The position numbers and the translations under genes were made by a program. The notes under the pieces were generated by a model that did no database searches, was not told where the DNA came from, and saw only the letters and a program-made list of their open reading frames with translations. Of a stretch of 64,000 bases of DNA, positions 16,476 to 62,710 are shown piece by piece. The DNA comes from Candidatus Omnitrophota bacterium. GTDB lineage: Bacteria > Omnitrophota > Gorgyraeia > Duberdicusellales > 4484-171. Within the stretch, counting starts at the first letter, position 1, and every line of letters begins with the position of its first letter. The stretch covers positions 6,125 through 70,124 of the forward strand of contig JAIPGM010000007.1 in assembly GCA_021735655.1 (NCBI GenBank), written 5' to 3'.

Positions 16476-16531
16476 GAAAATCACCCCCCTTTTTTATTCT
16501 CAACACTTTGTTAAGAAATACCTTATAATTC

Positions 16532-17066: not shown

Positions 17067-17068
17067 AA

Positions 17069-47832: not shown

Positions 47833-48167
47833 TTTGCTGAGCTTTGGCTCTGTGAAGAAGTTGCAACAATGCGGGTAATAGTAAGATTGGTAAGGATTTG
47901 ACGATGCCCTTGTTTTTTACGATATTTCTTTCGGCGTTTGCTCTTGTAAATGATAACCTTTTTGCTCTTTACTTCAGCATCAATCTGAGCCTCAACCTTT
48001 GCCTTATCTACATAGGGAGTGCCTACTTTAATCTTTTTATCATCAGCCAAAAGCAATATCTTATCAAAAACAATCTTGCCCTCTTTTTCCTTAAGGCGCT
48101 GGACCTTTATCCGATCCCCTTTTTTGACCAAATACTGCTTTTTGCTTATTTCTACTACTGCTAACAT
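47829..48167 (-). CDS. rplU: 50S ribosomal protein L21
   Basis: MLAVVEISKKQYLVKKGD is a typical L21 N-terminus. Confidence 0.9.
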   Translation of the reverse strand: MLAVVEISKKQYLVKKGDRIKVQRLKEKEGKIVFDKILLLADDKKIKVGTPYVDKAKVEAQIDAEVKSKKVIIYKSKRRKKYRKKQGHRQILTNLTITRIVATSSQSQSSAK

Positions 48168-48222: not shown

Positions 48223-48693
48223 TCAAATGGCTGATTTTTTTAAATGTGACGGGGTCAAGTCAATTACTTCGCCAACCTTCATCTCAATAAGGTATTTAAA
48301 CTTAGGAAAACGCGACTCAGGATGCAATGAAGAACCTTTATCTTTCTGAATATTCTTAACTACCCGCTTGGACATCCGATCAATTAATCGCTTCTCCCAT
48401 TTCTTGATAACCGCTTCTTTTACATTTTTGCGTTCTACCATATAAGCAAGGCCTTTTAAAGCAAAACCAATAAATTGATGTTCGTCTATAGCGGTTATGG
48501 TTATGGTCGGGTTTTTTTCTAAATTAGAAAAAGTTTTCGCTTCGTATAGGTCAATCAAATATACCCTACTATGATCAACCCCGACGATTCCCTTGGCTGA
48601 AGAATGTATCTTATTATTTTGATCAAGAGTAGAGACAATAACAAAATCTTGATTATGGAAAAAATTAATTATCGAATCTGATAGCTTTTCCAT
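48223..48693 (-). CDS. hypothetical protein, pyridoxamine-5'-phosphate-oxidase-like FMN-binding split-barrel (tentative)
   Basis: 156 aa; weak resemblance only. Confidence 0.4.
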   Translation of the reverse strand: MEKLSDSIINFFHNQDFVIVSTLDQNNKIHSSAKGIVGVDHSRVYLIDLYEAKTFSNLEKNPTITITAIDEHQFIGFALKGLAYMVERKNVKEAVIKKWEKRLIDRMSKRVVKNIQKDKGSSLHPESRFPKFKYLIEMKVGEVIDLTPSHLKKSAI

Positions 48694-48695
48694 AG

Positions 48696-49604
48696 TTAAT
48701 GAGTAGAAATATATTTAAAGGCCGAAAGACAAGCTTTTGAGCCCTCGCCACAAGCAATAATAATCTGCTTCTCAGGAACATCAGTTACATCTCCAGCAGC
48801 AAACACACCTTCGATATTAGTCTTATTATTCTGATCAACAATAATCTCACCTTTCTGATTTTTTTTCAAAATTCCGGCAAAGCCAACATTAGGCGCTAGC
48901 CCAACTTCAATGAATACTCCCTCTAACTCTAGATTAACTACCCTTCCCTGCTGCTCAAATTCGATCCCCTTAACAAAGGTTTCACCATATATTTTTTTCA
49001 TCTGAGCATTATTATGAATCTCGACCAATTGAGACTGATCTAGCTTCTCAATCATTATTGGATCACCGGTAAGCTTTGGCCCAATATTAACTATGTGCAC
49101 TTTTGGTGAAATTTTAATCATTTGTAAAGCTGCCTCTAGTGCTGAATTGCCACCACCGATTATGGCAACCGATTTATCCTTAAAAACTGGGCCATCGCAA
49201 GTCGCACAATAGGTAACACCCTTATTCTTATACTCCTCTTCACCAGGAACATTAAGCATCCGTGGTTTTTTCCCGGTTGCAACAATGATCATTCTTGAGA
49301 TATACTCCGCTTTATCAGTAATTACCCTTAGCCGATCTCCCTCTTTCTTTAAATCCTTTACCGTTTCAGGTATATTTGTCTTAGTACCGAATGATTCCAT
49401 ATGTTTTTGAAATTTTAAAGTGAGCTCCGGACCAGTAATAAATTGATAACCGGTGTAATTTTCGATATCCCCGCTCCAAGCAGTTTGGCCGCCAATATCA
49501 AAACTAATTATTAAAAAATTTAGGCGCTTTCTCACTGCGTAAACCGCTGCAGTTATCCCTGCTGGACCAGCACCAAGAATTATTAAATCGTAAATTTTAC
49601 TCAC
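48696..49604 (-). CDS. trxB: thioredoxin-disulfide reductase
   Basis: FAD motif GAGPAG, redox CATCDG, NADPH motif GGGNSA. Confidence 0.92.
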   Translation of the reverse strand: MSKIYDLIILGAGPAGITAAVYAVRKRLNFLIISFDIGGQTAWSGDIENYTGYQFITGPELTLKFQKHMESFGTKTNIPETVKDLKKEGDRLRVITDKAEYISRMIIVATGKKPRMLNVPGEEEYKNKGVTYCATCDGPVFKDKSVAIIGGGNSALEAALQMIKISPKVHIVNIGPKLTGDPIMIEKLDQSQLVEIHNNAQMKKIYGETFVKGIEFEQQGRVVNLELEGVFIEVGLAPNVGFAGILKKNQKGEIIVDQNNKTNIEGVFAAGDVTDVPEKQIIIACGEGSKACLSAFKYISTH

Positions 49605-49635
49605 TTTTTATCCAAAAAGGTATATTTAGGTATGT

Positions 49636-49860
49636 TTATAGGAAAGAATCAATCTTATCTTTATCAAAACCAATAATAATTTTACCGTCGATAGAGATAA
49701 CCGGAACTCCCATTTGCCCTGAAATCTTTACCATTTCTTCACGAGCAGCAGCATCTTGAGAAACATCAAAATTTTGGTAAGCTATGCTCTTGGAAGTCAG
49801 GTAATCTTTCACCATCACGCAATAGGGACAAGTTTTGGTAGAGTATACTTTTACTTCCAT
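49636..49860 (-). CDS. glutaredoxin/NrdH-like small redoxin (CPYC)
   Basis: 74 aa with TCPYC active site. Confidence 0.85.
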   Translation of the reverse strand: MEVKVYSTKTCPYCVMVKDYLTSKSIAYQNFDVSQDAAAREEMVKISGQMGVPVISIDGKIIIGFDKDKIDSFL

Positions 49861-49866
49861 TGTAAT

Positions 49867-50349
49867 TCACTCCATCAGTTTCTTTTTAACAAGATTGAGT
49901 TTGGAAAGATGTTTCTTCTCATCGCCGACAATCTTATTAAAAATATCCAACTTTAAAGGTGTGATCTGATCTTTTAAAGTTGAATAGACCAGTATTACTT
50001 TAATCGTTATATATATCGCGAACTCAACCGCATCGAGATCCTTCTCAAATAACTCTCTGGTTTTTTTCTCAATCATCTCCTGGGCATAAAGAAAACTTGG
50101 AATAATGTCTTTCAAGTAAGGATCATACTCTCCCGAAACAAGTTCATAAACCACATAACCCTCAGGGTCATCCCGCATCTCACTAAGTACCTTGCTGTAC
50201 ATTAAATTGTCCTGTTCAAGATCAGCCCAAAGATCTCGTAATTCGCTATTTATTGTTTTCTGACCCAAAGCCTCATAAAGTTTTGCTAAATTATATTTAA
50301 CCTTAAAAGCTATTTCTAAAATTTTTTGAGGATTAAACTGTTCGGACAT
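49867..50349 (-). CDS. ferritin-like four-helix-bundle protein (degenerate di-iron motifs)
   Basis: Paralog of the next gene; only one ExxH motif (DEKKH) is retained. Confidence 0.5.
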   Translation of the reverse strand: MSEQFNPQKILEIAFKVKYNLAKLYEALGQKTINSELRDLWADLEQDNLMYSKVLSEMRDDPEGYVVYELVSGEYDPYLKDIIPSFLYAQEMIEKKTRELFEKDLDAVEFAIYITIKVILVYSTLKDQITPLKLDIFNKIVGDEKKHLSKLNLVKKKLME

Positions 50350-50362
50350 GGAATTCTTAGTT

Positions 50363-50842
50363 CTAAGTAAGTATGTGTTTTAGGTTTTTCAACTGTACAA
50401 GATGCTTCTCTTCTTCCTTAATGATCTTATCTAAAACAGCCAGCTTATCTTTTTTTATATATTCTCTTAAGGCAGTATAAGTAAGAATTGATATTTTTTC
50501 AACTGAGATGCCGAAGTCTATAGCCTGATTGCTGTTTTCAAAGCGCTGGCTAATAAACTTTTTAATTAAACCCTGGGTAAAAATATACTCAGAAGCAATC
50601 GCGCCAAGATAGGCTTGATGTTCTCCAGGAGAAAACTCAAATATTAAATAATCTTTCTGATTATCAAGCATCTTCTGAAATAGCTCTCGGTGAATCTCTT
50701 CCTGTTCTTTTAGATAAGACCAAAGCTGTTCAGTTTTTTCATCCTGGCTTTCTGAAGCCAAGGCTTCATACAAATCTTTACCGTTTTTTTCAACTTCAAC
50801 GGCTATTTTTAAAATTTCACCAGGGCTATACTGCTGCAACAT
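50363..50842 (-). CDS. ferritin-like/rubrerythrin-like di-iron four-helix-bundle protein
   Basis: Two ExxH motifs (EEIH, EEKH), 159 aa. Confidence 0.55.
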   Translation of the reverse strand: MLQQYSPGEILKIAVEVEKNGKDLYEALASESQDEKTEQLWSYLKEQEEIHRELFQKMLDNQKDYLIFEFSPGEHQAYLGAIASEYIFTQGLIKKFISQRFENSNQAIDFGISVEKISILTYTALREYIKKDKLAVLDKIIKEEEKHLVQLKNLKHILT

Positions 50843-50845
50843 AGA

Positions 50846-52027
50846 TTAATCATCCTTTATTTTATCCAGTATTTTTGGAATTATTTCTGAAAGCGAAGCT
50901 AATTCTTTCTCATCAGGAATATATTGAAAATACTTACCTTCGGCTATTAATTCTATGCCCGAAGCCTTTAAGCCTTCTTCTAAATCCTTAAAGCCAGCCT
51001 TAGACCATCCGTAAGAACCGAAGCTAAAGCCAAACTTGGCTTTCGGCTTTAGCCCTTTTAAATAGGTAAATAAAGCCCCTAGCGAGGGAAGGATTCCATT
51101 GTTCAGTATCGGACTACCGACGATAACCGCCCTAGCAGAAAGAATATCGGCTACGACATCAGAAGTATCCTTTGTCTGCAAATTAACTAGATCCACCGGA
51201 ACATTTTCTTTATCAATCAACTCATAAATTCTTCTCGCCATCTTCTCGGTAGAATGCCACATACTATCATAAATGATAACTGCCCGTTCTTCGCTCTTGG
51301 CATTAGCCCACTTATCATAAAGATCTATAATCGTTTCGATATTCTGCTTTTGTCGCCAAATTAAACCATGAGAGGGGCAAATTGCCTCTAAATTTAAAGA
51401 CTGTAAAGTCTCTAAGGCTTTTACCACTTGAACTCCATAAGGCATAACAATGTTGGCGTAATATTTAGCTGCTTCACGAAAAATAATATCAGCACCTATC
51501 TCGTCGACAAACCGCTCACTGCTGGCATAATGTTGCCCAAAAGCATCGTTAGAAAACAATATCTGTTGATCTTTAAGGTAAGTGACCATAGAATCCGGCC
51601 AATGAACCATCGGAGTTAAGTGAAATTGCAAAGTCCGTTTGCCTATTGAAAGTTTATCCTGTGAGTCAACAACTTTGAATTTCCAATCTTTCTTATAATG
51701 CCGTCCAAGAGCCTCTTTTCCTTTAGGAGAACAAACTACTTCAGCTTGAGGACAAAAATCAAGCAGCTTATCGATTGAGCCTGAATGATCCATCTCAGCA
51801 TGGTTTGAAATAATATACTGAATCTTAGACGGATGGATAATCTCCTTAATCCGGTTTAGCATGTCGTCCGATCCATAATGTTTCACAGTATCGATTAAGG
51901 TTGGCTTTTCATCCACGATAAGATAAGCATTATAGGTAGATCCTTTTGGCGTTGAATAACCATGGAAATTCTTTAAATCCCAATCAACATGACCAACCCA
52001 ATAGATATCATCATTTATTTTAATCAT
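50846..52027 (-). CDS. flavodiiron protein (rubredoxin:oxygen/NO oxidoreductase, FprA/ROO type)
   Basis: Metallo-beta-lactamase domain with HxExDH (NHAEMDHSG) plus C-terminal flavodoxin domain. Confidence 0.9.
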   Translation of the reverse strand: MIKINDDIYWVGHVDWDLKNFHGYSTPKGSTYNAYLIVDEKPTLIDTVKHYGSDDMLNRIKEIIHPSKIQYIISNHAEMDHSGSIDKLLDFCPQAEVVCSPKGKEALGRHYKKDWKFKVVDSQDKLSIGKRTLQFHLTPMVHWPDSMVTYLKDQQILFSNDAFGQHYASSERFVDEIGADIIFREAAKYYANIVMPYGVQVVKALETLQSLNLEAICPSHGLIWRQKQNIETIIDLYDKWANAKSEERAVIIYDSMWHSTEKMARRIYELIDKENVPVDLVNLQTKDTSDVVADILSARAVIVGSPILNNGILPSLGALFTYLKGLKPKAKFGFSFGSYGWSKAGFKDLEEGLKASGIELIAEGKYFQYIPDEKELASLSEIIPKILDKIKDD

Positions 52028-52051
52028 AATTTAATTTATTAACCTCTCTTT

Positions 52052-52216
52052 TTAATCAGCAGCCTTCTCAAACTGATCTTTACCTACACCACATTCAGGA
52101 CACACCCAAGAATCAGGAAGTTGTTCAAAAGCAGTCCCCGGCTCTATCCCCGAACTAGGATCGCCGACTGCCGGATCATAAATATAACCACAAACTACAC
52201 ATCGATATTTACTCAT
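52052..52216 (-). CDS. rubredoxin
   Basis: CVVCGY...CPECG motifs. Start set to MSKYRC, which is preceded by an AAAGGAG SD. Confidence 0.9.
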
Positions 52217-52467
52217 AGTTTCTCCTTTAGCTTCGATTTTACCACATTCATTACTCTTGTAAACCCTCAAAAACTAAGCCTTTAATATAATTAATCCACC
52301 CGTTAATTACAATCTAAAACAAACCAGCGAATATGAGAAAACAGGCACCAACAAGCAATAGAAGAGCCACTAAGCCTGATATTGATTCAAAACAAATCGG
52401 GCAAACGCTTTTAGTTAAAGCATGCACCTTACAGTGAAAAAGTCCTATTGTCTTCTCAATCTAAACC

Positions 52468-52914
52468 TTAGCACACCGTTTGATTTTGTGAAAAATCAAA
52501 AATTAAACCCTTGAGCCTGTCACGCACCGTCCGAAAAGCCTCTAATTTTTCTTGATCGCCAACTACTGCAGCCGGGTCCTCTAACGACCAATGTATTTTT
52601 TTATAAACTCCCGGAAATACTGGACATTCTTTAGCAACATTATCACAAACCGTAATCAAATAGTCAAACTCCTGACCAATGAATTCAGTTAAACTCTTTG
52701 AACGCTGGCTAGAGATATCAATGCCGATTTCGGCCAATACTTTAATTGCATAAGGATTTACCAATGATGGCTTAGAGCCGGCACTTTCTACTTTAAACCG
52801 TTCTTGAGCCATATGCCTAAAAAGACCCTCAGCCATTTGGCTACGAGCAGAATTCTGAGTGCACAAAACTAAAACTCTCTTTTTTTTCATTAAAAAATTA
52901 ATTTTTAGCAGCAA
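52468..52914 (-). CDS. low-molecular-weight phosphatase family protein, ArsC-type arsenate reductase-like
   Basis: P-loop CTQNSARS and downstream Cys pair (VCDNVAKECP). Confidence 0.75.
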   Translation of the reverse strand: MLLKINFLMKKKRVLVLCTQNSARSQMAEGLFRHMAQERFKVESAGSKPSLVNPYAIKVLAEIGIDISSQRSKSLTEFIGQEFDYLITVCDNVAKECPVFPGVYKKIHWSLEDPAAVVGDQEKLEAFRTVRDRLKGLIFDFSQNQTVC

Positions 52915-52934
52915 CCGCCACCTAAAGACTCCTT

Positions 52935-54065
52935 TTATTTTCTACACAACTCTTTTTCCTTAATGTCTATTGTTTGAAGCAACGAATCAAAAGAACCCTG
53001 AAAAGCAATAACTCCTTTTTCCAACAACTCTTGGCAAACCTGGTTTAAATCAATACCTAAACTTCCAAGACTGTCAACGATAGACTTAGCTCCTAAGATA
53101 TCACCGTCCAAAGAAATATTAGCTACCCCGTGGTCAAGAAAGGCTTGAAAGGTAGCCTCAGGCAAAGTGTTAACCGTATTTTTTCCAATCAATTCAGTAA
53201 CATATTTGATGTCGCTGTAGGCTGGACTTTTTGTCGAGGTTGAAGCCCAAAGAACCCTTTGTAAATTTGCCCCTCTTTGCTTTAACGATTTAAACTGATT
53301 GGATGAAAAAATATCTAAATATTCCTTATAAATTAACTTTGAGTTTGAAACGGCGGCTTTCCCTTTTAATAATTCTAAATTAACTTTTTCTTGATCGGAA
53401 CTATCAATTATCATCTCATCTAGAAACCGGTCAATTACGCTATCAATCCTACTTACGAAAACGCTGGCTACCGAATGTAGATTTTTTAACTGACCGCCGA
53501 TCTCTAGGAATCGCTTTAAACCATTCATATAAGAAGCAGCCGTTTTCTTATACTGCTCTAAAGAAAAAATTAGAGTCGCGTTAACATTCATGCCTTGAGC
53601 CAATATCTCCTCAATTGCCCTAAAGCCTTCTTCAGTCGCCGGAATCTTTAGCATTAAATTTGGCCGCTTAACCTTAGTCCAAAGCCGTTTAGCTTCTTCA
53701 ATAGTCTCTTCTGTGTTATAAGCAAGCTGAGGATTAACCTCTAGACTAACATAGCCATCCTTACGGTTACTTTCATTGTAGACTACGCTTAAAAGATCAG
53801 CGGCTTCCTGAATATCCTTTACCGTTAAATTATCATATATCTCAAATGTAGATAACCCTTGTGCTGCCGATTCTTTAATTTTCTGATCATAATCAGAACC
53901 TTTTGAAATAGCCTTATCAAATATTGTAGGATTGGAAGTAATTCCCTTTAATCCTAAGGCGATCATTTCCTCGAGCCCACCCTTTTCAATTAAAGGACGG
54001 CTGATCTGATCCAACCAGGCACTTTGGCCTGCATCATACAACTCAACAATTCTTGTCTTATCCAC
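52935..54065 (-). CDS. tal: transaldolase (long form)
   Basis: ITSNPTIF motif and Schiff-base Lys region, 376 aa. Confidence 0.85.
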   Translation of the reverse strand: MDKTRIVELYDAGQSAWLDQISRPLIEKGGLEEMIALGLKGITSNPTIFDKAISKGSDYDQKIKESAAQGLSTFEIYDNLTVKDIQEAADLLSVVYNESNRKDGYVSLEVNPQLAYNTEETIEEAKRLWTKVKRPNLMLKIPATEEGFRAIEEILAQGMNVNATLIFSLEQYKKTAASYMNGLKRFLEIGGQLKNLHSVASVFVSRIDSVIDRFLDEMIIDSSDQEKVNLELLKGKAAVSNSKLIYKEYLDIFSSNQFKSLKQRGANLQRVLWASTSTKSPAYSDIKYVTELIGKNTVNTLPEATFQAFLDHGVANISLDGDILGAKSIVDSLGSLGIDLNQVCQELLEKGVIAFQGSFDSLLQTIDIKEKELCRK

Positions 54066-54220
54066 CGCTTACTCCTTTTTAGTTAGATAACTTACCTATC
54101 TAATATCATAATACATTCTTCCCAAACGCTCTGTAAATGACCCAAATATAAAACCCAAAGTTAACAACCAATTTAAGTATAATTACTGAAATCGTTTAGT
54201 CTATTAATCCCTAAAACCGA

Positions 54221-54760
54221 TTAATTAGAAATCCTGATCTTTAATGGTCCCTTATAAATTGATATCTTGGGCTTAATTAACTCTTGATCTTCGGAAGTCC
54301 CTTTTTTCCCAGACAAAAATTCTTCAATGTCAACAAGGAAAACCGTTGTCAAATTATCTTCATCCATATTTTCGGCATCCGAATCTTCATGAATAACTAT
54401 TTTAATCGTATGCCAACTTCCTAATTTATGAGCTTCAACTCCCCCGACATAAGTTCCTTGCCCCAAATTATCAGCAAAAAAACTATAAGGAGACTTTCCA
54501 ACTCCAGCCATTGCTGAACCCTTTAATAACCAAACAGTATACAAGCCACGAGGCTCTAAACCCTTTGCCTTGAACTCAATCCTATTCTTTCCACCGTAAT
54601 AAATATTTTCGTTTAAAAAAACTTTCAACTCTGCTTTATGATGAACGCCCTGCCCCTTAGCTGTAATTTTAGACTCAGCAAAAACTCCAATCGATAAACC
54701 AAAAACAAAAATTAAGAATGCTACGATTTTAACCCAATGGCCATAAATTTTCATCTTCAA
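54221..54760 (-). CDS. secreted hypothetical protein
   Basis: N-terminal signal peptide, no recognisable domain. Confidence 0.5.
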   Translation of the reverse strand: MKMKIYGHWVKIVAFLIFVFGLSIGVFAESKITAKGQGVHHKAELKVFLNENIYYGGKNRIEFKAKGLEPRGLYTVWLLKGSAMAGVGKSPYSFFADNLGQGTYVGGVEAHKLGSWHTIKIVIHEDSDAENMDEDNLTTVFLVDIEEFLSGKKGTSEDQELIKPKISIYKGPLKIRISN

Positions 54761-54774
54761 ATCTCCTTTGACTA

Positions 54775-55941
54775 TTAAAATATTAGATTAGCAATAAATC
54801 CTAAAACAATTACCTGGGGAACAGTTACGATCGGAAGCCAAATAGCAACTCTCCGACCAACGTTATGCCAAAGAAGCCCAATCTCAGTATAGTCAATAAC
54901 TACCCCGGCCATAAGAAAAACAAAACTGTTTCCCAAAGCTCCGGTTTGTTTAAATATTTCAAAGGCTAAGGGAGCTGACCCCTCAGAACATACCTCAATT
55001 ACGGTGGCAACAGCCAAAGTGACTAAAAGCCCCAAAACCGTTGGGCCCATATAGTTACTAAAAATACTTGAAGGAATATAGGCTCCGGCTAAGCTAGCTA
55101 ATCCAGTACCGATTAGAATCCACCAAAGAACCATATTGCTTAGAGAAATGGCTCCTTTGTATATACCTTTTAAATCCGACTTGAAAATAGCAAAAGAAAA
55201 TTTTCGTCGCTTAATCCGCAGCTTTAAATCTTTAATTACCGAAAAATCTTCTGCAACATTTACAGTATTAGTATTACTCTCAATCAACCCCTGATTTTCT
55301 AGAAATTGAAAAATAAATCCGGTGATTATCGCAATGATAATCGCTGAAATAATTATAAATAGGGCTTTTAAACCAAAAAGCCCTATTAACATTATGGTTA
55401 AAACCATATTCGCCCAGGGACTCGCCAAGAGAAAAGCTACAACCGCTGGGTTTGAAGCTCCTTTTTTATGTAACTGGATTGAAATAGCAAGGATTCCGTG
55501 CGAACAAACACTCATTAAAAAACCGAGAAAAACCGAATAAAAAATTGTTCGCTTTCTAGGACGGGAAAGAAGCAATGAAATATAGTGACGAGGTATATAG
55601 TGCTCGATAACTCCTCCAACTAAAAGACCTAAAGCTATGGCCCACCAGAGGATTTTAAAATAATTAAATAAAGTTTTTCTAAATGGTTCAAGCAGAGGAA
55701 TAAAATAGGAAGCTAAACTCAAAATAGCCATGGCCAAGGCAACAATGAATGTTTTATTTTTATAAAAAGGGTTTTTTGCTACCGTTAGGCAACTCTTAAG
55801 TTTTAATTGAGGTATTTTATTGTCTTGAGCGAACTTTTCTAAACAGCTCTGGCTACAAAAAAAGAAAGTCTCACTCTCGTGATCAATCTGTAAGCTCTTT
55901 TTTTCGTTAACCTTCATTCCGCAAATAGGATCTTGAGCCAC
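54775..55941 (-). CDS. YHS/TRASH metal-binding domain fused to an ArsP/DUF318-like permease
   Basis: N-terminal DPICGMKV (YHS motif) plus CxxC, followed by about 8 TM segments resembling the two-repeat permease family found in ars loci. Confidence 0.6.
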   Translation of the reverse strand: MAQDPICGMKVNEKKSLQIDHESETFFFCSQSCLEKFAQDNKIPQLKLKSCLTVAKNPFYKNKTFIVALAMAILSLASYFIPLLEPFRKTLFNYFKILWWAIALGLLVGGVIEHYIPRHYISLLLSRPRKRTIFYSVFLGFLMSVCSHGILAISIQLHKKGASNPAVVAFLLASPWANMVLTIMLIGLFGLKALFIIISAIIIAIITGFIFQFLENQGLIESNTNTVNVAEDFSVIKDLKLRIKRRKFSFAIFKSDLKGIYKGAISLSNMVLWWILIGTGLASLAGAYIPSSIFSNYMGPTVLGLLVTLAVATVIEVCSEGSAPLAFEIFKQTGALGNSFVFLMAGVVIDYTEIGLLWHNVGRRVAIWLPIVTVPQVIVLGFIANLIF

Positions 55942-55951
55942 TGGGAGTCTC

Positions 55952-56389
55952 CTACTTTAAAAAATCAATATAAACAGCCAGTAATAATGCTAACCCGGAA
56001 AAAATAAAGATAAAAAAATAATTAATTTTATCCTTTTTTGAACTCAATTGACAAAGTAATGTTCCCAAAAGTTCATAGTCATGATCGGACAGTTCTTGCT
56101 TTGAAAGCAGCTTAGGAGTAAGCTGAGAATCCTTTAACTGACGATGCATCAAATTATGACGTCTGAATTTATAGATAAAAAATAAGGTAAACCCGCTTAT
56201 TCCAACATACCAAAATATCTTTGCCAGCATCGGATTAAAATCCAAAACTAAATTAACCGCCCTGACTGATATTGTTGCGATCAAAGCTATAGTAAAAAAC
56301 ACCCAAGCAATCGGTGATTCTTTGCAAGTTTTTAATCTGATACAGTCCTGGCAGATGAACTTTTTATCTTTCTTAAGTGATTTCGACAT
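55952..56389 (-). CDS. small membrane protein with N-terminal CxxC...C motif
   Basis: FICQDCIRLKTC followed by 3 predicted TM helices. Confidence 0.5.
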   Translation of the reverse strand: MSKSLKKDKKFICQDCIRLKTCKESPIAWVFFTIALIATISVRAVNLVLDFNPMLAKIFWYVGISGFTLFFIYKFRRHNLMHRQLKDSQLTPKLLSKQELSDHDYELLGTLLCQLSSKKDKINYFFIFIFSGLALLLAVYIDFLK

Positions 56390-56391
56390 TA

Positions 56392-56892
56392 CTACCTAAT
56401 AGACTTTAATAAATCTTGAAGCAAGCCCCTATGATTTTTCTCTTCACTGATAATTCTATCTAATTCTTTTTTAACTTTCTCAGCAGAAACTGAATTTTTG
56501 CAAAATTCATAGAAGGCAACTGTCTTACTCTCAATGACAACAGCTAACTCTATTGCTTTTTTGGTATCAGTAATAATCTTTTCTAGTTCTTCTTGTCTTT
56601 TAAGACCCTGGAAAATTCCAAAATCAATACTGCTTAATAAATCATTATCTTCGGAAATATCTTCGCCGTTCTTTCTTACTTCGCTTAGAAGATATTCAAA
56701 AATTCTCAAGTGTCGAACTTCCTCAGAAACTAAAAGCTCCAAGGTACTTTTAACCTGCAGCTCAACTACTTTGGCAGCTAATCTTTTATAAAAATCCACG
56801 CCATCTTTCTCAATTTTTTCAGCTATTCGATAAGCTTCAAATTCTGTAAAATCGGTAATTACCAGTTTATCATTTTTTTCTTCTATTTTCAT
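56392..56892 (-). CDS. rubrerythrin-like ferritin-family di-iron protein (no rubredoxin domain)
   Basis: ExxH motifs EEVRH and EEKNH, 166 aa. Confidence 0.65.
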   Translation of the reverse strand: MKIEEKNDKLVITDFTEFEAYRIAEKIEKDGVDFYKRLAAKVVELQVKSTLELLVSEEVRHLRIFEYLLSEVRKNGEDISEDNDLLSSIDFGIFQGLKRQEELEKIITDTKKAIELAVVIESKTVAFYEFCKNSVSAEKVKKELDRIISEEKNHRGLLQDLLKSIR

Positions 56893-57030
56893 AACCAGCC
56901 CTCCATTTGATCAATTATTCTAGCTATTATAAAATCATTATCAGTAAACCCCACGGAAACTAACAACTCTAAAAAAGGAAAAGGGCTTTCCTGAAATACC
57001 ACCTTTCGCATAGCAATGCTCCTTCAGAAA

Positions 57031-57165
57031 TTAAAGATTCCAACTTCCTTTTTCTTTAGTCGTCATCGTCTTATTACAACATTTTATCTTTTTGGTTGAT
57101 TTTTTACCCTTGCCACAAATAACACAAAGGTAAGCTTTTTTTTTATTAGTCTTTCTTTTCGCCAT
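57031..57165 (-). CDS. 44-aa Cys-rich basic protein MAKRKTNKKKAYLCVICGKGKKSTKKIKCCNKTMTTKEKGSWNL (putative small Zn-binding protein)
   Basis: ATG overlaps the upstream gene stop (TAATG), with an AGGAGA SD 5 nt upstream; C-x2-C-x13-CC motif. Below the ORF-track size cutoff. Confidence 0.5.
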   Translation of the reverse strand: MAKRKTNKKKAYLCVICGKGKKSTKKIKCCNKTMTTKEKGSWNL

Positions 57166-57638
57166 TATTTTCTCCTATTCAATAATCTAATTTTCGTCTG
57201 TAATGTCCCCATCGGACAAACCGCACACCAAGTGCGAGCCTGAAAAGGAATCCCGATGAAAATTGCAATCAAGGTAGTTACTAGGCACATTCTTACAAAA
57301 ACAAAACCTAGCGAATAAACATTTCTCTCGACCACAAAAAGTTGACTAGCAAAAAAAATCATAAAGATCGCAAATACCCCCCAACGAAACTTCTGGCTAG
57401 CAAAAATTCTTGGAAGCTGAGCTTTACGACTAACTCTGCTTAAAGCCAAATCCAAAAATGCTCCCCGCGGGCAAAGATGTGAGCACCAAAACCTCCCCTT
57501 AAAATAGGATAAACTTAAAAGAAAAATCATCATCAATAACACCAAGTAGCCTAAAAGAGGAAAAAATAACCCACCGACGATGATTAAAGGTAAAAACCAA
57601 ACCATTATCAACTGACTAAGTTTTACTTTTTTTCCCAA
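57165..57638 (-). CDS. membrane protein with two Cys clusters (4Fe-4S-binding, NapH/MauN-like fragment)
   Basis: CSHLCPRG and CAVCPMG motifs flanking TM helices. Confidence 0.55.
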   Translation of the reverse strand: MGKKVKLSQLIMVWFLPLIIVGGLFFPLLGYLVLLMMIFLLSLSYFKGRFWCSHLCPRGAFLDLALSRVSRKAQLPRIFASQKFRWGVFAIFMIFFASQLFVVERNVYSLGFVFVRMCLVTTLIAIFIGIPFQARTWCAVCPMGTLQTKIRLLNRRK

Positions 57639-57904
57639 AACTCTTCAGCCTCCTCTTCCATTTTTTCTAGCCGATCATAATAATCAGGAAATTCATTAAG
57701 ATGGGCCAAGGCAATTTTTCCGGTAGTTAAGGGATCATCGTTGCTAACATTGGTCTTTGAGTCTACCAAACCATGCTCTAACTCTACATCCATACCTGTC
57801 CTAAACTGATCAAGATCAAATTTATCCCATTTAATTCCTAATTGCTTGCCGATAGCTTTTGCTTCATCTGAGGTAAAATGTTCTTTTGTTGACACCCAGA
57901 CCAC
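57623..57904 (-). CDS. conserved hypothetical protein (DUF; ELEHG...DYY motif)
   Basis: 93 aa, acidic C-terminus, embedded in the rubrerythrin operon. Confidence 0.5.
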   Translation of the reverse strand: MVWVSTKEHFTSDEAKAIGKQLGIKWDKFDLDQFRTGMDVELEHGLVDSKTNVSNDDPLTTGKIALAHLNEFPDYYDRLEKMEEEAEEFWEKK

Positions 57905-57911
57905 CTCCTTT

Positions 57912-58490
57912 TTAATAATTTTCAGCTAAAATTTCGTAATAGCTCTGCGGATGGGCACAGGCCGGACACTTATCCGGGGCCTCTTTGCCTTCATGGACAT
58001 AACCGCAATTACGACATCTCCACTTAACTAATGTATCTTTTTTAAATACTTTTCCTTCCTTCACATTTGAAAGTAGCTTACGATACCTCTTTTCATGTTC
58101 CTCTTCAACCTCGGCTATCTCTTTAAATAAATCAGCAATTTCTAAGAAATCTTCTTCGCGGGCCACAGCTTCAGCTTCTTTATAAAGCTTAGTCCATTCT
58201 AGATTTTCTCCATCGGCCGCCCCTTCCAAATTAGATGCCGTATCTGAAACTATTCCTGCTGGGTAGCTAGCCTGAATCTCAACTTCACCACCTTCTAAAA
58301 ACTTAAAAAACTTCTTAGCATGTTCTTTTTCATTGTCAGCAGTCTCTAGAAAAATGGCTGCTATCTGTTCGTATCCGGATTTTTTGGCCACTGAAGCAAA
58401 ATAAGTATAGCGATTCCGGGCCTGTGATTCCCCGGCAAAAGATGCCAATAAATTTTTTTCTGTTTTAGTTCCCTTTATAGATTTGCCCAT
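57912..58490 (-). CDS. rbr: rubrerythrin (di-iron domain plus C-terminal rubredoxin-like CxxC...CxxC)
   Basis: ExxH motifs plus WRCRNCGY...CPAC. Start set to MGKSIKG, which is preceded by an AAGGAGGA SD. Confidence 0.9.
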   Translation of the reverse strand: MGKSIKGTKTEKNLLASFAGESQARNRYTYFASVAKKSGYEQIAAIFLETADNEKEHAKKFFKFLEGGEVEIQASYPAGIVSDTASNLEGAADGENLEWTKLYKEAEAVAREEDFLEIADLFKEIAEVEEEHEKRYRKLLSNVKEGKVFKKDTLVKWRCRNCGYVHEGKEAPDKCPACAHPQSYYEILAENY

Positions 58491-58509
58491 GACTGAATCC
58501 TCCTTAGAT

Positions 58510-58629
58510 TTATATTTTTTCCATCGGCTGCTCACAACAAACTAATTCTCCGCCTCCAGCCTTAGTCACCGTCACCTCATTACCACAAACATTACACTTA
58601 TATTTTTCACCAACCTGTTCAACTGCCAT
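58510..58629 (-). CDS. desulforedoxin (39 aa)
   Basis: Translation [39 protein letters not shown] has the Dx signature CxxC...GGG..VCC and an AGAGGAGG SD. Not in the ORF track. Confidence 0.8.
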
Positions 58630-58645
58630 AAATACCTCCTCTTAT

Positions 58646-59041
58646 CTACTCAAAACTCAATTCTTGAGAATTTTCCCAAAGTCCATGAATATTGCAATAA
58701 CTAGATACCAAAATTACCCCTGGCTTATCGGTTTTTAAACAAACTGTGGCTTTTGGACAAACATAAACTGTACTTGTATTCGGTCCTTGAACCGATGCTC
58801 CATGGGCACTAAATTCAAATCTTCCTAACTGACAAGGGAATTTCTCTCCTTGAGGCTTAAAATATAGCTCAATCCAAGAAATATGGTGCTCGGTTGTATT
58901 GGGATGGGCAATTTCTTTACCTACGGTTACAACAATGCTAACGCATTCGCCCCTTTTAACCGCGCCCTGAACCTCAATAACCGGAACATGTTTCTCAGAC
59001 TTCCAGTCAGCAGTTTGTAATAAATCTTTTATGCTAGCCAT
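58646..59041 (-). CDS. superoxide reductase (neelaredoxin/1Fe-SOR type)
   Basis: EKHVPVIE, HP...EHHI, and C..HG ligand motifs. Confidence 0.88.
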   Translation of the reverse strand: MASIKDLLQTADWKSEKHVPVIEVQGAVKRGECVSIVVTVGKEIAHPNTTEHHISWIELYFKPQGEKFPCQLGRFEFSAHGASVQGPNTSTVYVCPKATVCLKTDKPGVILVSSYCNIHGLWENSQELSFE

Positions 59042-59054
59042 ACCCTTCTCCTTT

Positions 59055-59288
59055 TTATGCTACCTGTTCAACTTCCTTAACCTCAGGTACCACTTCTTTT
59101 AGTTTCTTCTCAATACCCATCTTAAGAGTGTAAGTGCTCATCGGACAACAACCACAAGCGCCGGTTAAACGTAGCTTAACTACCGCCTCTTTGGTTACCT
59201 CGACCAATTCAACATCTCCTCCGTCGGCCTGAAGAGCCGGCCTTATGTCTTCTAAAGCTTTTTCTACCTTCTCTTTCAACATATGCAC
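59055..59288 (-). CDS. NifU-like (Nfu-type) Fe-S cluster scaffold domain protein
   Basis: GACGCCPMS (CxxC) motif, 77 aa. Confidence 0.8.
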
Positions 59289-59303
59289 CTCCTTAATCTC
59301 TAA

Positions 59304-60605
59304 TTATTTAATTACTTTATCCCCTAAAATAGATTTTAAATCTTCTTCAGCCGTAGTGATTGGTTTGATTTCAAATTTCTCAACCAGTATCTCTAACACC
59401 TTCGGTGAAACAAATGCCGGCAAAGTCGGGCCTAAGCGTATATTTTTAACTCCAAGATGAAGCAAAGTTAATAAAATTGCAACCGCCTTCTGTTCAAACC
59501 AAGATAATACTAATGACAGCGGCAATTCATTTACCCCACAGTTGAAAGCCTTTGCCAAAGCTAAGGCAACTTCTATCGCCGAATAAGCATTATTGCATTG
59601 CCCTAGGTCAAGCAATCTAGGTATGCCTTCAATCTCGCCAAACTCAAGTTTGTTGAACCGATACTTACCGCAAGCAAGGGTAAGAATAAGGCAATCAGCA
59701 GGAACCTTCTCGGCAAACTCAGTATAGTAATTTCGGCCCAGCTTAGCCCCATCACAACCCCCAATAAGAAAGAAATGACGGATCTTTCCTCGTTTAACCG
59801 CATCAACTATTTTATCGGCTAAACTTAGAATAGCCGTGTGATGAAACCCAGTCATTATTTTTTTACCCGGTGCTTCAATAAGTGCTGGAAGTTGTTTGGC
59901 TTTAGCAATCACTGACGAAAAATCTCTCGACTTAAGGTGATTTGCGCCAGACACCCCAGTAACGCCAATCGTAAATAACCTATCTAAATAAGTATCTTTA
60001 GGTGGTATCAAAACGCAATTAGTCGTTACCAATAACGCCCCAGGAAATTCTTTAAACTCCTTCTTTTGCTCTTGCCAAGCATTACCGTAATTACCAACCA
60101 AATGTTTAAACTTCCTTAATTCTGGATAGCCATGGGCTGGCAACATTTCGCTATGGGTATAAACATTAACTCCGGTACCCTCTGTTTGTTTAAGTAGTTC
60201 ATACAAGTCAAGCAAATCATGACCGGTAATTAAAATTCCCGGACCGGCCTTTGTCCCAGTTTCAACCTCTGCCGGAAAAGGATTGCCAAAACGATCAGTA
60301 TGAGCCTTATCAAGCAAAGCCATTACCTTTAAGTTCATCTCGCCACACTTTAGAACCATAGCTAGATAATCATTGAGATCAAAACTGACGTTAGTCACTG
60401 TCTTAAAAAGAGCCTCATGCATAAAGCCATCTACCTCTGGATCCACTGCGCCTAATTCCCGGGCATGAAAAGCATAGGCAGCTATTCCTTTCAATCCGTA
60501 AAGTAAAGTATCCTGCAAGCTCTGGATATCAGAATCTTTACCACAAGCGCCTACTTTCACGCATCCGCTGCCACCAATTGTCTGTTCGCATTGATTACAA
60601 AACAT
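59304..60605 (-). CDS. hcp: hybrid-cluster protein (hydroxylamine reductase), short class
   Basis: N-terminal CNQCEQT...C..VGACGK Cys cluster. Start set to MFCNQCEQ at 60603-60605; the longer track ORF is upstream read-through. Confidence 0.85.
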   Translation of the reverse strand: MFCNQCEQTIGGSGCVKVGACGKDSDIQSLQDTLLYGLKGIAAYAFHARELGAVDPEVDGFMHEALFKTVTNVSFDLNDYLAMVLKCGEMNLKVMALLDKAHTDRFGNPFPAEVETGTKAGPGILITGHDLLDLYELLKQTEGTGVNVYTHSEMLPAHGYPELRKFKHLVGNYGNAWQEQKKEFKEFPGALLVTTNCVLIPPKDTYLDRLFTIGVTGVSGANHLKSRDFSSVIAKAKQLPALIEAPGKKIMTGFHHTAILSLADKIVDAVKRGKIRHFFLIGGCDGAKLGRNYYTEFAEKVPADCLILTLACGKYRFNKLEFGEIEGIPRLLDLGQCNNAYSAIEVALALAKAFNCGVNELPLSLVLSWFEQKAVAILLTLLHLGVKNIRLGPTLPAFVSPKVLEILVEKFEIKPITTAEEDLKSILGDKVIK

Positions 60606-60621
60606 ATCGACCAAACCCCCT

Positions 60622-61332
60622 TTAATAACCGATGAAGCTTTCTGTTTTAACCTTATTTTTATCACAACCGGTTTTAAGGCACAAGTCATGCATCGCCTTA
60701 ACCATCGATGGTGGGCCAAAAACAAAAAAGGTTCTATCTTTCCATCTCTCTATCTTCTCAACTAACAACTCTTGACTAATCACACCGTTAATGCAGCTCT
60801 GATCCTTTGGTTCACAATCAGTCACCAGATAGAATACCTTTATAGTATCATTAGCCGCTTGCCAGTTATCCAGCTCTTCTTTAAAAGCAATATCTTCAGT
60901 CCGGTTAGAATAAAGCAAAATAACATTTGTCTTAAGCCGCTTATTTTCAATGTATTCAATAATTGAAATTACCGGGGTTATGCCAATTCCACCAATTAAA
61001 AATGCTACCTTCTTATTGTCATCACTGAATACACAGCTACCCATCGCCGGCTTTAAATCTACTTTATCACCCGGTTTCAGGTCTCTTAGCTTTTGAGAAA
61101 ATTCACTTTCGCTCAATCTTTTAGTGACCTCCAAATATTGTTTAGTTGGTGAAGAGGAAAAAGAAAGGTACTTATTCAGCTGATGATTCCTAAGATTATC
61201 GCTATCGAAAATAAGTTGTGTAAACTGTCCGGGTAAAAAATCTACCCTTACTTCCGGAAAAAACCGAAAACTCTCTATATCTTTAGTTCTCTTGATGCGT
61301 TCACTTAAACTTGCCTTAATTTTATTTTCCAT
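60622..61332 (-). CDS. FNR-family FAD/NAD(P)-binding oxidoreductase (putative Hcp/rubredoxin reductase partner, no Fe-S domain)
   Basis: KYLSFSS (RxYS-type FAD motif) and GGIGITP NAD motif. Start at the MENKIKA ATG, overlapping the fur-family stop by 11 nt. Confidence 0.7.
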   Translation of the reverse strand: MENKIKASLSERIKRTKDIESFRFFPEVRVDFLPGQFTQLIFDSDNLRNHQLNKYLSFSSSPTKQYLEVTKRLSESEFSQKLRDLKPGDKVDLKPAMGSCVFSDDNKKVAFLIGGIGITPVISIIEYIENKRLKTNVILLYSNRTEDIAFKEELDNWQAANDTIKVFYLVTDCEPKDQSCINGVISQELLVEKIERWKDRTFFVFGPPSMVKAMHDLCLKTGCDKNKVKTESFIGY

Positions 61333-61741
61333 TATTAACCTCCCGGCAGTTTTTACATGTACCATAGAAGTAACCCTGAAGCTCTTCGATGATATTACCG
61401 TCAACTTCTCGTTGTTCAAGAGCCTTGCAAGGCTTCATATTAAGATCCGAAATTTCATCACAGCTCTTACATAAAAAATGATGGTGGGGGTCAATTCTAG
61501 CTTCAAAGCAAGACTTATCAAACTGTATTCTTATCTCATTAATTACGTGCTTCTGCTTAAAAAGATCCAAAACCGTATAAACAGTAGCCAAAGATACTGC
61601 TGGCATTCTAAGCTTAACTCTCTCGTAAATCTGATCAGCAGTTAAATGCTTACCATTATTTAAAAGAACTCCATGGACCTCTAACCTCTGCTGAGTTGGC
61701 CTTATATCATGACCCCTTAATACCTTAAGACTGTTTTCCAT
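61322..61741 (-). CDS. Fur-family metalloregulator (PerR-like by context)
   Basis: N-terminal HTH region, HHHF.C..C metal-site motifs, C-terminal CxxC; heads the oxidative-stress cluster. Confidence 0.85.
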   Translation of the reverse strand: MENSLKVLRGHDIRPTQQRLEVHGVLLNNGKHLTADQIYERVKLRMPAVSLATVYTVLDLFKQKHVINEIRIQFDKSCFEARIDPHHHFLCKSCDEISDLNMKPCKALEQREVDGNIIEELQGYFYGTCKNCREVNNGK

Positions 61742-61750
61742 ATTAATCGA

Positions 61751-61779
61751 CTATACAACTTTTTCTCCTTATTGTCAAG
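61751..61779 (-). promoter_or_regulatory. sigma70-like promoter for the fur-family gene (TTGACA, 17 nt, TATAGT); implies a near-leaderless mRNA
   Basis: Minus-strand TTGACA (plus 61774-61779) and TATAGT (plus 61751-61756); the ATG lies only about 9 nt after the -10 element. Confidence 0.5.
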
Positions 61780-61794
61780 AATTATTTTTGATTA

Positions 61795-61807
61795 ATAATG
61801 ATTATTG
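61795..61807. promoter_or_regulatory. Fur/PerR-box-like perfect palindrome AATAATGATTATT
   Basis: 13-bp 6-1-6 perfect inverted repeat about 55 nt upstream of the fur-family ATG; resembles the PerR box TTATAATnATTATAA and the Fur box core. Confidence 0.5.
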
Positions 61808-61928
61808 TTAAAAGTCATAACCCTCTTTCCTCCATAAGGTTCTAGTCCAACTCATTAATCGGGTTAAAAAATGGGCATGAAAACAAGCTAAAAAATAATA
61901 GCGTTTTCAGATCAAAAGAAAAATACCC

Positions 61929-62635: not shown

Positions 62636-62710
62636 TGGCTGCCCGGCTAGGACTCGAACCTAGGAAACAAGAACCAGAATCTTGCGTGTTGCCAATTACA
62701 CTACCGGGCA
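62636..62710 (-). tRNA. tRNA-Gln (anticodon CUG)
   Basis: Hand-folded: acceptor TGCCCGG/CCGGGCA (U1-A72, G73 as in bacterial tRNA-Gln), anticodon stem CAAGA/TCTTG with loop TTCTGGT, T-arm CTAGG-TTCGAGT-CCTAG, encoded CCA. G37 is atypical. Confidence 0.75.

Follow-up and report, generated by a model that had tools for sequence, protein, structure and literature searches.

A probable oxidative and nitrosative stress defence island, headed by a PerR-like regulator gene, in an anaerobic lineage of Omnitrophota

INTRODUCTION

Is a long run of redox genes on one strand of a compact bacterial genome a defence system with its own regulator, or only a product of the way in which such a genome is packed, and do the small uncharacterised genes within it serve the same end? 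The question is raised by a 64,000-nt stretch of contig JAIPGM010000007.1 (positions 6,125 to 70,124 of the forward strand; assembly GCA_021735655.1) from a Candidatus Omnitrophota bacterium, hereafter the window, whose positions 48223-61810 were described in a sequence-only reading as a supercluster for defence against O2, reactive oxygen species (ROS) and NO, headed by a Fur/PerR-family regulator gene. Gene content and conservation of the array in related genomes bore out that description, and we consider it likely that an anaerobic Omnitrophota lineage has here a conserved island for defence against oxidative and nitrosative stress, with the gene of a PerR-type repressor at its head.

RESULTS

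Twenty-three consecutive genes, mostly of redox-defence families

By combining open reading frame (ORF) calls with Pfam and NCBIfam searches, 23 genes, all on the minus strand, were delimited in 48223-61810, and an independent gene call on the same public contig returned the identical gene set. In transcription order they are:

61322..61741, minus strand: perR-like Fur-family regulator, 139 aa (Pfam FUR 82 bits, cutoff 23.1)
60622..61332, minus strand: FNR-like FAD/NAD(P)H reductase, 236 aa (Pfam NAD_binding_1, FAD_binding_6)
59304..60605, minus strand: hybrid-cluster protein (Hcp)/hydroxylamine reductase, short form, 433 aa (NCBIfam 735.9 bits, cutoff 367)
59055..59282, minus strand: Nfu/NifU C-terminal-type Fe-S carrier, 75 aa (Pfam NifU 103 bits)
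58646..59041, minus strand: 1Fe superoxide reductase (SOR), neelaredoxin type, 131 aa (Pfam Desulfoferrodox)
58510..58629, minus strand: stand-alone desulforedoxin (Dx), 39 aa (Pfam Desulfoferrod_N 63.3 bits; CxxC-x15-CC)
57912..58490, minus strand: rubrerythrin, 192 aa (NCBIfam equivalog 302.6 bits, cutoff 200; CxxC-x12-CxxC)
57623..57904, minus strand: DUF5661 protein, 90-93 aa, alternative ATG at 57895 (Pfam PF18905 87.8 bits)
57165..57638, minus strand: Fer4_5 membrane protein (mini-NapH-like), four helices, two CX2-3CP motifs (Pfam Fer4_5; weak NapH/CcoG similarity)
57031..57165, minus strand: Cys44, 44 aa, very basic, with invariant CxxC-x11-CC and a near-invariant KG(S/T)WN(L) tail
56392..56892, minus strand: RbrL166, rubrerythrin-like diiron protein lacking a rubredoxin domain (Pfam Rubrerythrin 37.8 bits)
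55952..56389, minus strand: CxxC membrane protein, 145 aa, 3 hydrophobic helices predicted (no Pfam or NCBIfam match above threshold)
54775..55941, minus strand: YHS + ArsP_1 permease, 388 aa (Pfam YHS, ArsP_1)
54221..54754, minus strand: Sec179, signal-peptide protein (no family match)
52935..54065, minus strand: transaldolase, 376 aa (NCBIfam 461 bits, cutoff 367)
52468..52890, minus strand: LMWP-family, thioredoxin-type ArsC-like protein, 140 aa, alternative TTG start at 52914 (Pfam LMWPc)
52052..52216, minus strand: rubredoxin, 54 aa (Pfam Rubredoxin 89.8 bits)
50846..52027, minus strand: flavodiiron protein (FDP), metallo-beta-lactamase-like plus flavodoxin domains (Pfam ODP, Flavodoxin_1)
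50363..50842, minus strand: FerL159, ferritin-like diiron protein with all ligands kept (Pfam Rubrerythrin 33.2 bits)
49867..50349, minus strand: FerL160, tandem paralogue of FerL159 (no Pfam match; phmmer to FerL159 E 2e-23)
49636..49860, minus strand: YruB-family glutaredoxin-like (Grx-like) protein, 74 aa, CPYC (TIGR02196 106.9 bits, cutoff 88.55)
48696..49604, minus strand: TrxB/AhpF-C-terminal-like flavoprotein disulfide reductase, 302 aa, CATC (Pfam Pyr_redox_2)
48223..48693, minus strand: PNPOx-like flavin-binding split-barrel protein, 156 aa (Pfam PNPOx_N)

The gene list of the sequence-only reading agrees almost one-for-one with these Pfam and NCBIfam assignments, every gene lying where it had been placed and on the minus strand. 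About 19 of the 23 consecutive genes belong to redox-defence families. SOR centre II, the Dx centre and the rubredoxin-like domain of rubrerythrin agree with their published motif definitions, and the other proteins have the Cys motifs expected of them. The flanks are ordinary, namely rplU, obg, proB, proA and nadD downstream, and a PilZ gene, small unknown ORFs and a tRNA gene upstream.

The same reading had described the cluster as running without a break, co-directionally and with many short junctions. No unrelated or opposite-strand gene intervenes between array members in the window copy, but three gaps do interrupt it, of 138 nt ahead of RbrL166, 155 nt ahead of the transaldolase gene and 251 nt ahead of the rubredoxin gene. 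Co-directionality and short junctions were likewise seen, but not above the background of the window, in which 66 of 69 ORFs with 60 aa or more lie on the minus strand; the median intergenic gap is 14.5 nt inside the cluster versus 4 nt outside, and junctions of 20 nt or less make up 15 of 22 inside versus 28 of 43 outside. Both features are genome-wide traits and no evidence for clustering, and for this reason strand and spacing were rejected as evidence for an operon as well. What stands above chance is the functional concentration, conserved in relatives.

The array recurs at a fixed position in related genomes

Using the CxxC membrane protein as anchor, 80 loci (denoted by L numbers) were assembled from species-representative genomes, further loci came from exact-protein look-ups, and the window proteins were mapped on all of them. 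The same array was found in a clade comprising L002, L004, L027, L082/83 and L084/85 besides the window, in the fixed position PilZ, perR to PNPOx, rplU-obg-proBA wherever the flanks lie on the contig. By the length of the run of labelled genes, the array of the window is the largest of 85 loci (22 genes, 13.5 kb), followed by L027 (19), L084 (18) and L002 (17); in L084 the 18 genes from perR to PNPOx are separated by no gap longer than 65 nt. Content varies within the clade: only the window and L002 have SOR and Dx, RbrL166 is shared by the window and L004, L084 lacks the CxxC membrane gene, and L002 has a peroxiredoxin gene. More distant Omnitrophota carry smaller, shuffled sets, e.g. ferritin-CxxC membrane protein-SOR-PNPOx-TrxB.

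Conservation of the uncharacterised ORFs in homologous clusters had been proposed as a check on their membership, and the DUF5661 protein, the Fer4_5 protein, Cys44, the CxxC membrane protein, the permease, the secreted protein and the ferritin-like pair are all kept in the clusters of relatives. As candidates by association they did not fare equally well: the case held for the CxxC membrane protein but was weak for the DUF5661 protein, which belongs to a very large family and stands alone elsewhere.

In L082, a six-gene insertion separates the transaldolase and rubredoxin genes. The stretch 10560-17801 of this locus has a glycosyltransferase gene before the transaldolase gene and, after it, genes for a dual-specificity phosphatase, a 476-aa pyridine-nucleotide disulfide reductase and a DedA/VTT protein, and further for a radical-SAM/DUF3641/methyltransferase fusion and a DUF2064 protein. 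The insertion may be a metalloid-related cassette.

The regulator resembles PerR

The NCBIfam model that fits the regulator best is PerR (NF052545), with 94.5 bits against a cutoff of 180, and the protein is classed here as PerR-like and not as a curated equivalog. Its three best matches among solved structures are 6dk4 (Campylobacter jejuni; the top match), 5nl9 (Leptospira) and 2fe3, labelled as Bacillus subtilis PerR; the former two we take to be PerR structures as well, their PDB labels saying only Fur or Fur family. The alignment to 2fe3 shows four of the five regulatory-site ligands kept, namely H37, H91, H93 and D104, with Glu at the position of D85, and the Zn(Cys)4 site is preserved, as C91-x2-C94 and C129-x2-C132 align to C96/C99 and C136/C139 of B. 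subtilis PerR. D104 is the residue that distinguishes PerR from Fur. These matches, together with the operator-promoter conserved in front of the gene in seven loci (below), support the view that the regulator resembles PerR more than Fur.

A palindrome and a predicted leaderless start at perR

Two candidate control elements were found upstream of the perR gene:

61794..61806, minus strand: putative PerR operator, a perfect 6-1-6 palindrome AATAAT-C-ATTATT
61750..61778, minus strand: sigma-70-type promoter TTGACA-17-TATAGT, the best score of the scan (11/12)

The palindrome is followed by AAAAATAATT, which abuts the -35 element. The perR transcript is probably leaderless, because only 8 nt separate the end of the -10 element from the perR ATG and a Shine-Dalgarno sequence is lacking. 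When the perR upstream regions of seven loci were aligned, a conserved block stood out amid diverged flanks, namely cAATAATcATTATTAtttAAAAATAATTcTTGACAA - N17 - TATAGT - ~8 nt - ATG, which points to a leaderless perR transcript and to a putative array of Fur-family operators directly next to the -35 element. In the window's clade, the operator occurs once per locus and always upstream of perR, and in the 64-kb window the perfect palindrome has two copies only. The other copy, AATAATCATTATT at 32587-32599, falls within the 3'-terminal part of a TPR gene, some 120 nt ahead of polA (29951-32464), and may be fortuitous or a link to a repair gene.

In a second Omnitrophota clade (L005, L006, L010, L012, L013, L016, L018 and L059), perR lies at the cluster end with its own promoter, TTGACA-17-TATAAT, right after which comes an 11-1-11 palindrome, TTGATATTGAA-N-TTCAATATCAA, perfect in two loci and with 1-2 mismatches in the others. 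This palindrome was considered as a regulon-wide operator and rejected, for it marks the perR promoter in every locus and one further site in L010. On the conservation of these upstream elements, autoregulation of perR is well supported as a prediction, PerR control of the first transcription unit is likely, and PerR control of the whole island is what we infer beyond that.

Enzymes of recognised families

The FNR-like reductase gene overlaps the perR stop by 11 nt, and its product resembles the reductase domain of Hmp and the Hcr-type NADH oxidoreductases, below the cutoffs of both; it is probably the reductase for Hcp. Hcp itself has the N-terminal CxxC-x8-C-x5-C, and behind this Cys motif it lacks about 110 positions of the profile. 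The SOR has the centre II motif EKH-x19-27-H-x5-H-x40-63-C-x2-H and no N-terminal Dx domain; it reaches 116 bits with the ferrous-iron-domain model (cutoff 61.9) and only 47 bits with the full 2Fe desulfoferrodoxin model (cutoff 146.9). The separately encoded desulforedoxin is 85-92% identical across seven loci.

In the later part of the array, the permease resembles SO_0444-type Cu/Zn efflux transporters (NCBIfam CuZnOut_SO0444 102.7 bits, below the cutoff of 300), and the ArsC-like protein scores 120.5 bits with TIGR02691, below the cutoff of 174.3, with CX5R and C-x6-C present. The transaldolase gene is retained in L004, L027, L082 and L084, and in the second clade it is found one gene upstream of perR (L006, L016, L059). 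The FDP scores 420.9 bits with the NorV-type model (cutoff 635), and the TrxB-like reductase 306.8 bits with AhpF and 293.7 bits with TrxR, both below the cutoffs. The order SOR-PNPOx-TrxB downstream of the CxxC membrane gene was seen in nine loci.

The CxxC membrane protein is associated with ROS genes and with a probable rubrerythrin-like partner

The CxxC membrane gene starts 2 nt after RbrL166, which keeps both ExxH motifs and the Glu ligands and matches the MbfA model weakly. At 90% identity the CxxC membrane family falls into 81 clusters, of which those with a name are nearly all from Omnitrophota; relatives occur in 120 species genomes, and an exhaustive profile search of 1.84 billion representatives yielded only 142 clusters at 50% identity. 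C13, C16, C22 and C113 are invariant in the Omnitrophota family. In the broader family the N-terminal Cys motif is found in 7 of 67 full-length representatives, and the distant relatives that were read all lack cysteine at the four positions. The AlphaFold2 (AF2) model of the protein (pLDDT 79.6) has no specific fold match.

In 50 of 78 loci the CxxC membrane gene has a ROS gene at most two genes away. In these 78 loci the gene directly downstream encodes an Fe/Mn superoxide dismutase (SOD) in 11, SOR in 10 and desulforedoxin in 5, and the gene directly upstream is ferritin or rubrerythrin-like in 13. Of the genes at most two positions from the anchor, 24.6% are core ROS genes, versus 2.3% of those beyond 5 kb, an odds ratio of 13.9 obtained outside the window's clade and with loci counted without correction for shared ancestry. 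The link to ROS genes is not universal: a Cys-less relative, in a 90% cluster that includes a protein of the candidate phyla radiation (CPR; Falkowbacteria), stands in an unrelated gene context.

A rubrerythrin-like domain is fused to a CxxC-family membrane core in P0283 from Fibrobacterota, a fusion represented by one protein cluster. Its N-domain scores above the Pfam cutoff, BLASTP to RbrL166 spans both ExxH motifs, and the membrane core is recognised by hhalign at 98.2%. P0283 sits in a Fibrobacterota ROS cluster comprising rubrerythrin, rubredoxin, Rbr-like protein, the fusion, Ogg, FDP, G6PD and 6PGL. From gene adjacency and this one fusion protein, RbrL166 and the CxxC membrane protein probably form a two-gene membrane-anchored diiron unit. 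The Fibrobacterota cluster (L090, 3910-11238) also holds an AOX-like protein, and pentose-phosphate enzymes recur in ROS clusters across phyla.

Other small proteins of the array

The DUF5661 gene follows rubrerythrin in the window, L002, L027 and L084/85, and also in L004, there with a small opposite-strand ORF between the two. Homologues number at least 8,000 proteins, and the matches listed (P0088-P0207), Methanosarcina included, are 74-87% identical, a cross-domain conservation unusually strong for an uncharacterised small protein. Since the gene stands alone in contexts unrelated to ROS defence outside the window's clade, its guilt-by-association signal is weak. No solved structural relative of the DUF5661 protein was found.

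The mini-NapH-like Fer4_5 gene overlaps the DUF5661 gene by 16 nt and the Cys44 gene by 1 nt. Cys44, found in nine loci, aligns to the Dx family with all four Cys matched (hhalign probability 73%, E 3e-5); it has no Pfam match, and its spacing is x11 and not the x15 of desulforedoxin. With moderate confidence, it may be called desulforedoxin-like, not a member of the family.

FerL159 has Thermotoga TM1526 (1vjx) as its nearest solved structure (E 8.5e-9), and FerL160 has lost most diiron ligands; the pair is kept in L004, L027, L082 and L084. The Sec179 family is narrow, with six clusters, and always follows an ArsP-type permease. The predicted model of Sec179 fits a Cu,Zn-SOD-like beta-sandwich best, if weakly, and only one His is invariant. 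The Cu/Zn ligand set that marks Cu,Zn-SOD is absent, and the Pfam search gave no Sod_Cu match. The model suggests, with moderate confidence, an SOD-fold protein lacking the catalytic site.

Gaps, promoter-like sites and transcription units

Each of the three gaps contains a promoter-like site scoring 9-10/12, at 54137-54108 in the 155-nt gap, at 52263-52236 in the 251-nt gap and as weak sites in the 138-nt gap, where two features were noted:

56893..57030, minus strand: 138-nt gap with weak promoter-like sites and a Fur-box-like TGATAATGATTTTAT at 56929-56943
56889-57011, in the 138-nt gap: 40-aa ORF from the public gene caller, no family match

The 40-aa ORF is probably spurious, because the gap is absent in L027. 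The Fur-box-like TGATAATGATTTTAT was considered as an operator and rejected as not above chance. The gaps (138-251 nt) argue against one unbroken operon in the window copy. Downstream of the array, rplU starts 55 nt after the PNPOx-like gene and has a promoter-like site of its own (48203-48175).

None of the intergenic gaps gave a match in a terminator scan of the region; the strongest minus-strand match, a 12-bp-stem hairpin with a T-rich run at 55358-55387, lies on the coding strand inside the permease ORF. The 251-nt gap showed no unusual RNA structure (z = +0.83 versus shuffled sequences) and no Rfam match, and in the region as a whole the Rfam scan matched nothing but a tRNA that lies outside the cluster. 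Short inverted repeats follow closely on the promoter-like sites before the transaldolase gene (TTAGATA-N7-TATCTAA, gap 54066-54220) and before the rubredoxin gene (TAATTAA-N8-TTAATTA, gap 52217-52467); they may be operators for other regulators.

Surroundings of the array

GC skew is negative across the window (1-64000), from -0.13 to -0.30, and the strand bias is extreme over at least 64 kb. Beyond the downstream end, rplU (L21) overlaps obg by 4 nt (46921-48167) with no rpmA (L27) between them, a layout shared by L084, while in L002 proB comes after rplU. On the other side, the tRNA gene lies at 62639-62710 on the minus strand (Rfam 60 bits), upstream of the PilZ gene; of three small ORFs beyond it, which have no significant family match, two recur in L027.

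DISCUSSION

How the island may work

What the data above show is the identity of the enzymes and the fact that the regulatory element is conserved; the remaining mechanism is drawn from the established behaviour of the families and is put conditionally. Metal-loaded PerR would bind the AATAAT-N-ATTATT / AAAAATAATT element next to the -35 of a strong sigma-70-type promoter and repress the leaderless perR transcript; peroxide would oxidise the regulatory His ligands, PerR would leave the DNA, and the downstream genes would be transcribed. The ancestral layout, as in L084 and L027, would be compact enough for one unit, and in the window copy insertions would have made the three gaps, probably with internal promoters.

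Six functional modules can be proposed. The FNR-like reductase, short Hcp and Nfu would remove NO or hydroxylamine and repair Fe-S centres. The 1Fe-SOR, desulforedoxin and rubrerythrin would convert superoxide to peroxide and peroxide to water, with SOR fed by desulforedoxin or rubredoxin, and rubrerythrin together with the rubrerythrin-like proteins removing peroxide. A membrane and metal module may comprise the DUF5661 protein, the mini-NapH-like protein, Cys44, RbrL166 with the CxxC membrane protein, the YHS-ArsP efflux permease and Sec179, of which the last three would handle metal at the membrane. Transaldolase and the ArsC-like protein would serve reductant supply and thiol chemistry; rubredoxin, FDP and FerL159/160 would reduce O2 or NO; and the Grx-like, TrxB-like and PNPOx-like proteins would form an NAD(P)H-driven reductase chain feeding the other modules, with the PNPOx-like flavoprotein and transaldolase contributing to the regeneration of reductant.

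For the uncharacterised genes in the middle of the island, a joint reading as a new membrane-associated arm of anaerobe ROS and metal defence is tentative, and we hold it to be rather doubtful as a whole. It has two parts. One may be a membrane-anchored rubrerythrin-like diiron system, encoded by two genes or fused as in Fibrobacterota, whose 3-helix partner gained a cytoplasmic four-Cys centre in Omnitrophota, which may work with SOR or SOD, whichever the genome has, and which may be served by the basic, desulforedoxin-derived Cys44 and the mini-NapH-like membrane protein. In the other, the YHS-ArsP exporter and the secreted, ligand-poor SOD-fold protein may handle metal or superoxide outside the cytoplasm.

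Weighing the readings

A number of observations weigh against a PerR-controlled defence island. The regulator scores below the NCBI equivalog cutoff for PerR, and it has Glu in place of the regulatory ligand D85. Classic PerR boxes do not sit where this operator does, its centre being some 22 nt upstream of the -35; with two mismatches allowed, the motif occurs near chance frequency; and no further copy was found before the tal or rd units when the loci of the window's clade were scanned. In the second clade, the palindrome of that clade is absent before the main defence operon and perR is at the cluster end. Short gaps are uninformative in a compact genome, and the functions proposed for the membrane and metal module draw on context, one fusion protein and moderate-confidence models.

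How far repression by PerR would reach, and whether PerR is what the regulator is, are the points on which other readings part from the defence island. All 13.5 kb from perR through the PNPOx-like gene, and maybe on into rplU-obg, might be one PerR-repressed operon in the window genome, which would suit the single operator per locus, the lack of a terminator-like site in any intergenic gap, the near-gapless arrays of L084 and L027 and the many overlapping junctions; the gaps of 138, 155 and 251 nt, each with its promoter-like site of 9-10/12, tell against it, as do the genome-wide compaction and the promoter-like site owned by rplU, and we regard a single operon as somewhat unlikely. The regulator might instead be a Fur paralogue sensing iron or another metal, and the array an iron-dependent regulon of iron-rich proteins. 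Nearly all products are indeed iron proteins, the PerR equivalog cutoffs are unmet, the operator is built of Fur-like AATAAT hexamers and D85 is Glu. Yet the best family model is PerR, B. subtilis PerR is among the three best solved matches, D104, H37, H91 and H93 are retained and the gene content matches known PerR regulons, so that a metal-sensing Fur is quite improbable.

Two further readings concern the gathering of the genes itself. The locus could be a recombination hot spot of separate cassettes, with the central permease-Sec179-transaldolase-ArsC stretch a metal or metalloid module, possibly for arsenic, and some of the unknowns mere passengers. ArsP_1 and LMWP-type ArsC are classic arsenic-resistance families, the L082 insertion sits at the same place, modules come and go between relatives, and DUF5661 stands alone elsewhere. 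The permease, however, fits Cu/Zn efflux models better than any ArsP model and has a YHS metal-binding domain; it directly follows the CxxC membrane gene or Cys44 in the window's clade and lies at most four genes from the anchor in 12 loci; and the transaldolase is linked to perR in two clades, while the Fibrobacterota ROS cluster embeds pentose-phosphate enzymes. We judge this cassette origin unlikely. A chance by-product of a small, compact, one-strand genome would explain a strand and a spacing that are the same as in the rest of the window, but not about 19 of 23 consecutive redox-defence genes that recur in many species, shuffled across the phylum, between housekeeping flanks; hardly any weight is left for chance, and the conservation data effectively refute it.

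Comparison with known systems

The conserved, PerR-headed defence island has several partial counterparts. The rbr-perR-sor-CD0828 operon of Clostridioides difficile is induced by H2O2 and air and autoregulated (PMC11980386). As in the window, perR lies inside or at the head of a group with rubrerythrin, superoxide reductase and a putative electron-donor flavoprotein (PMC11980386). That operon has four genes with a 2Fe-SOR, whereas the window has 23 with a 1Fe-SOR and a separate desulforedoxin; it is without Hcp, FDP, thiol-reductase, permease and membrane components, and its operator differs in sequence and position from that of the window, where perR comes first and is predicted to be leaderless. 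In Desulfovibrio vulgaris, with the perR-rbr-rdl and sor(rbo)-rub-roo operons, and in the PerR regulon of C. acetobutylicum, PerR controls O2 and ROS detoxification enzymes of anaerobes. Desulfovibrio shares with the window a Fur-like regulator beside rubrerythrin and rubredoxin-like genes, and a SOR-rubredoxin-flavodiiron trio. Its genes and those of C. acetobutylicum are scattered over several loci, whereas the window has one locus that also includes NO, thiol, metal and pentose-phosphate functions.

The cp34, cp9 and cp20 genes of C. pasteurianum encode TrxR-like, Grx-like and peroxiredoxin proteins. Their layout as a cp34-cp9-cp20 operon has been described (PMC3720550). Here too a YruB/Cp9-family glutaredoxin-like gene adjoins a TrxB/AhpF-like reductase gene, but in the window the gene order is reversed, no peroxiredoxin gene is adjacent (L002 has one elsewhere in the array), and a ferritin-like diiron gene precedes the Grx/TrxB pair, as it does in several other loci. 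The Hcp gene is paired with an FNR-family NADH oxidoreductase gene as in E. coli hcp-hcr, and the FNR-like gene scores 74 bits with the NCBIfam NADH oxidoreductase model PRK10684, which we take to be Hcr. Unlike in E. coli, the window reductase has no 2Fe-2S domain and precedes hcp, Hcp is of the short form, and control would be PerR-type instead of by an FNR/NsrR-type circuit.

MbfA is a membrane-bound ferritin in which an erythrin domain is fused to the iron exporter VIT1. The RbrL166 unit would likewise couple a rubrerythrin-like diiron domain to a membrane domain, with a link to peroxide and iron stress. Its membrane partner, however, has no VIT1-family domain; it is an unrelated 3-helix protein of about 120 residues with four invariant Cys, encoded by a separate gene in Omnitrophota, and the unit would be analogous, not homologous, to MbfA. 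Sec179 finds its best predicted-fold match in Cu,Zn-SOD, CCS domain II and B. subtilis YojM, and like SodC and YojM it is secreted, but it differs from the Cu,Zn-SOD family in its 9-17% identity, in the absent Cu/Zn ligand set and in its coupling to an ArsP-type permease.

Meaning for Omnitrophota

The island is an enlarged variant of known PerR-type ROS loci of anaerobes, in which the PerR defence logic is unchanged, and in this respect its value is incremental. It differs from them in bringing six functional modules together at one locus, in its predicted leaderless, perR-first architecture with a distinct operator, and in undescribed conserved accessory families. A literature search found no paper linking Omnitrophota to these defence genes, and the main genomic survey of the phylum makes no mention of oxygen-defence genes.

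As a compact DNA fragment, the locus could be moved into a surrogate host, and it attaches testable functions to families now without any, i.e. the 3-helix membrane family, Cys44, the pair of an active and a degenerate ferritin-like protein, and Sec179 with the metal permease. The Omnitrophota are widespread, uncultured, mostly ultra-small bacteria and presumed anaerobes, and a conserved toolkit at a single locus bears on how such presumed anaerobes survive at oxic-anoxic interfaces.

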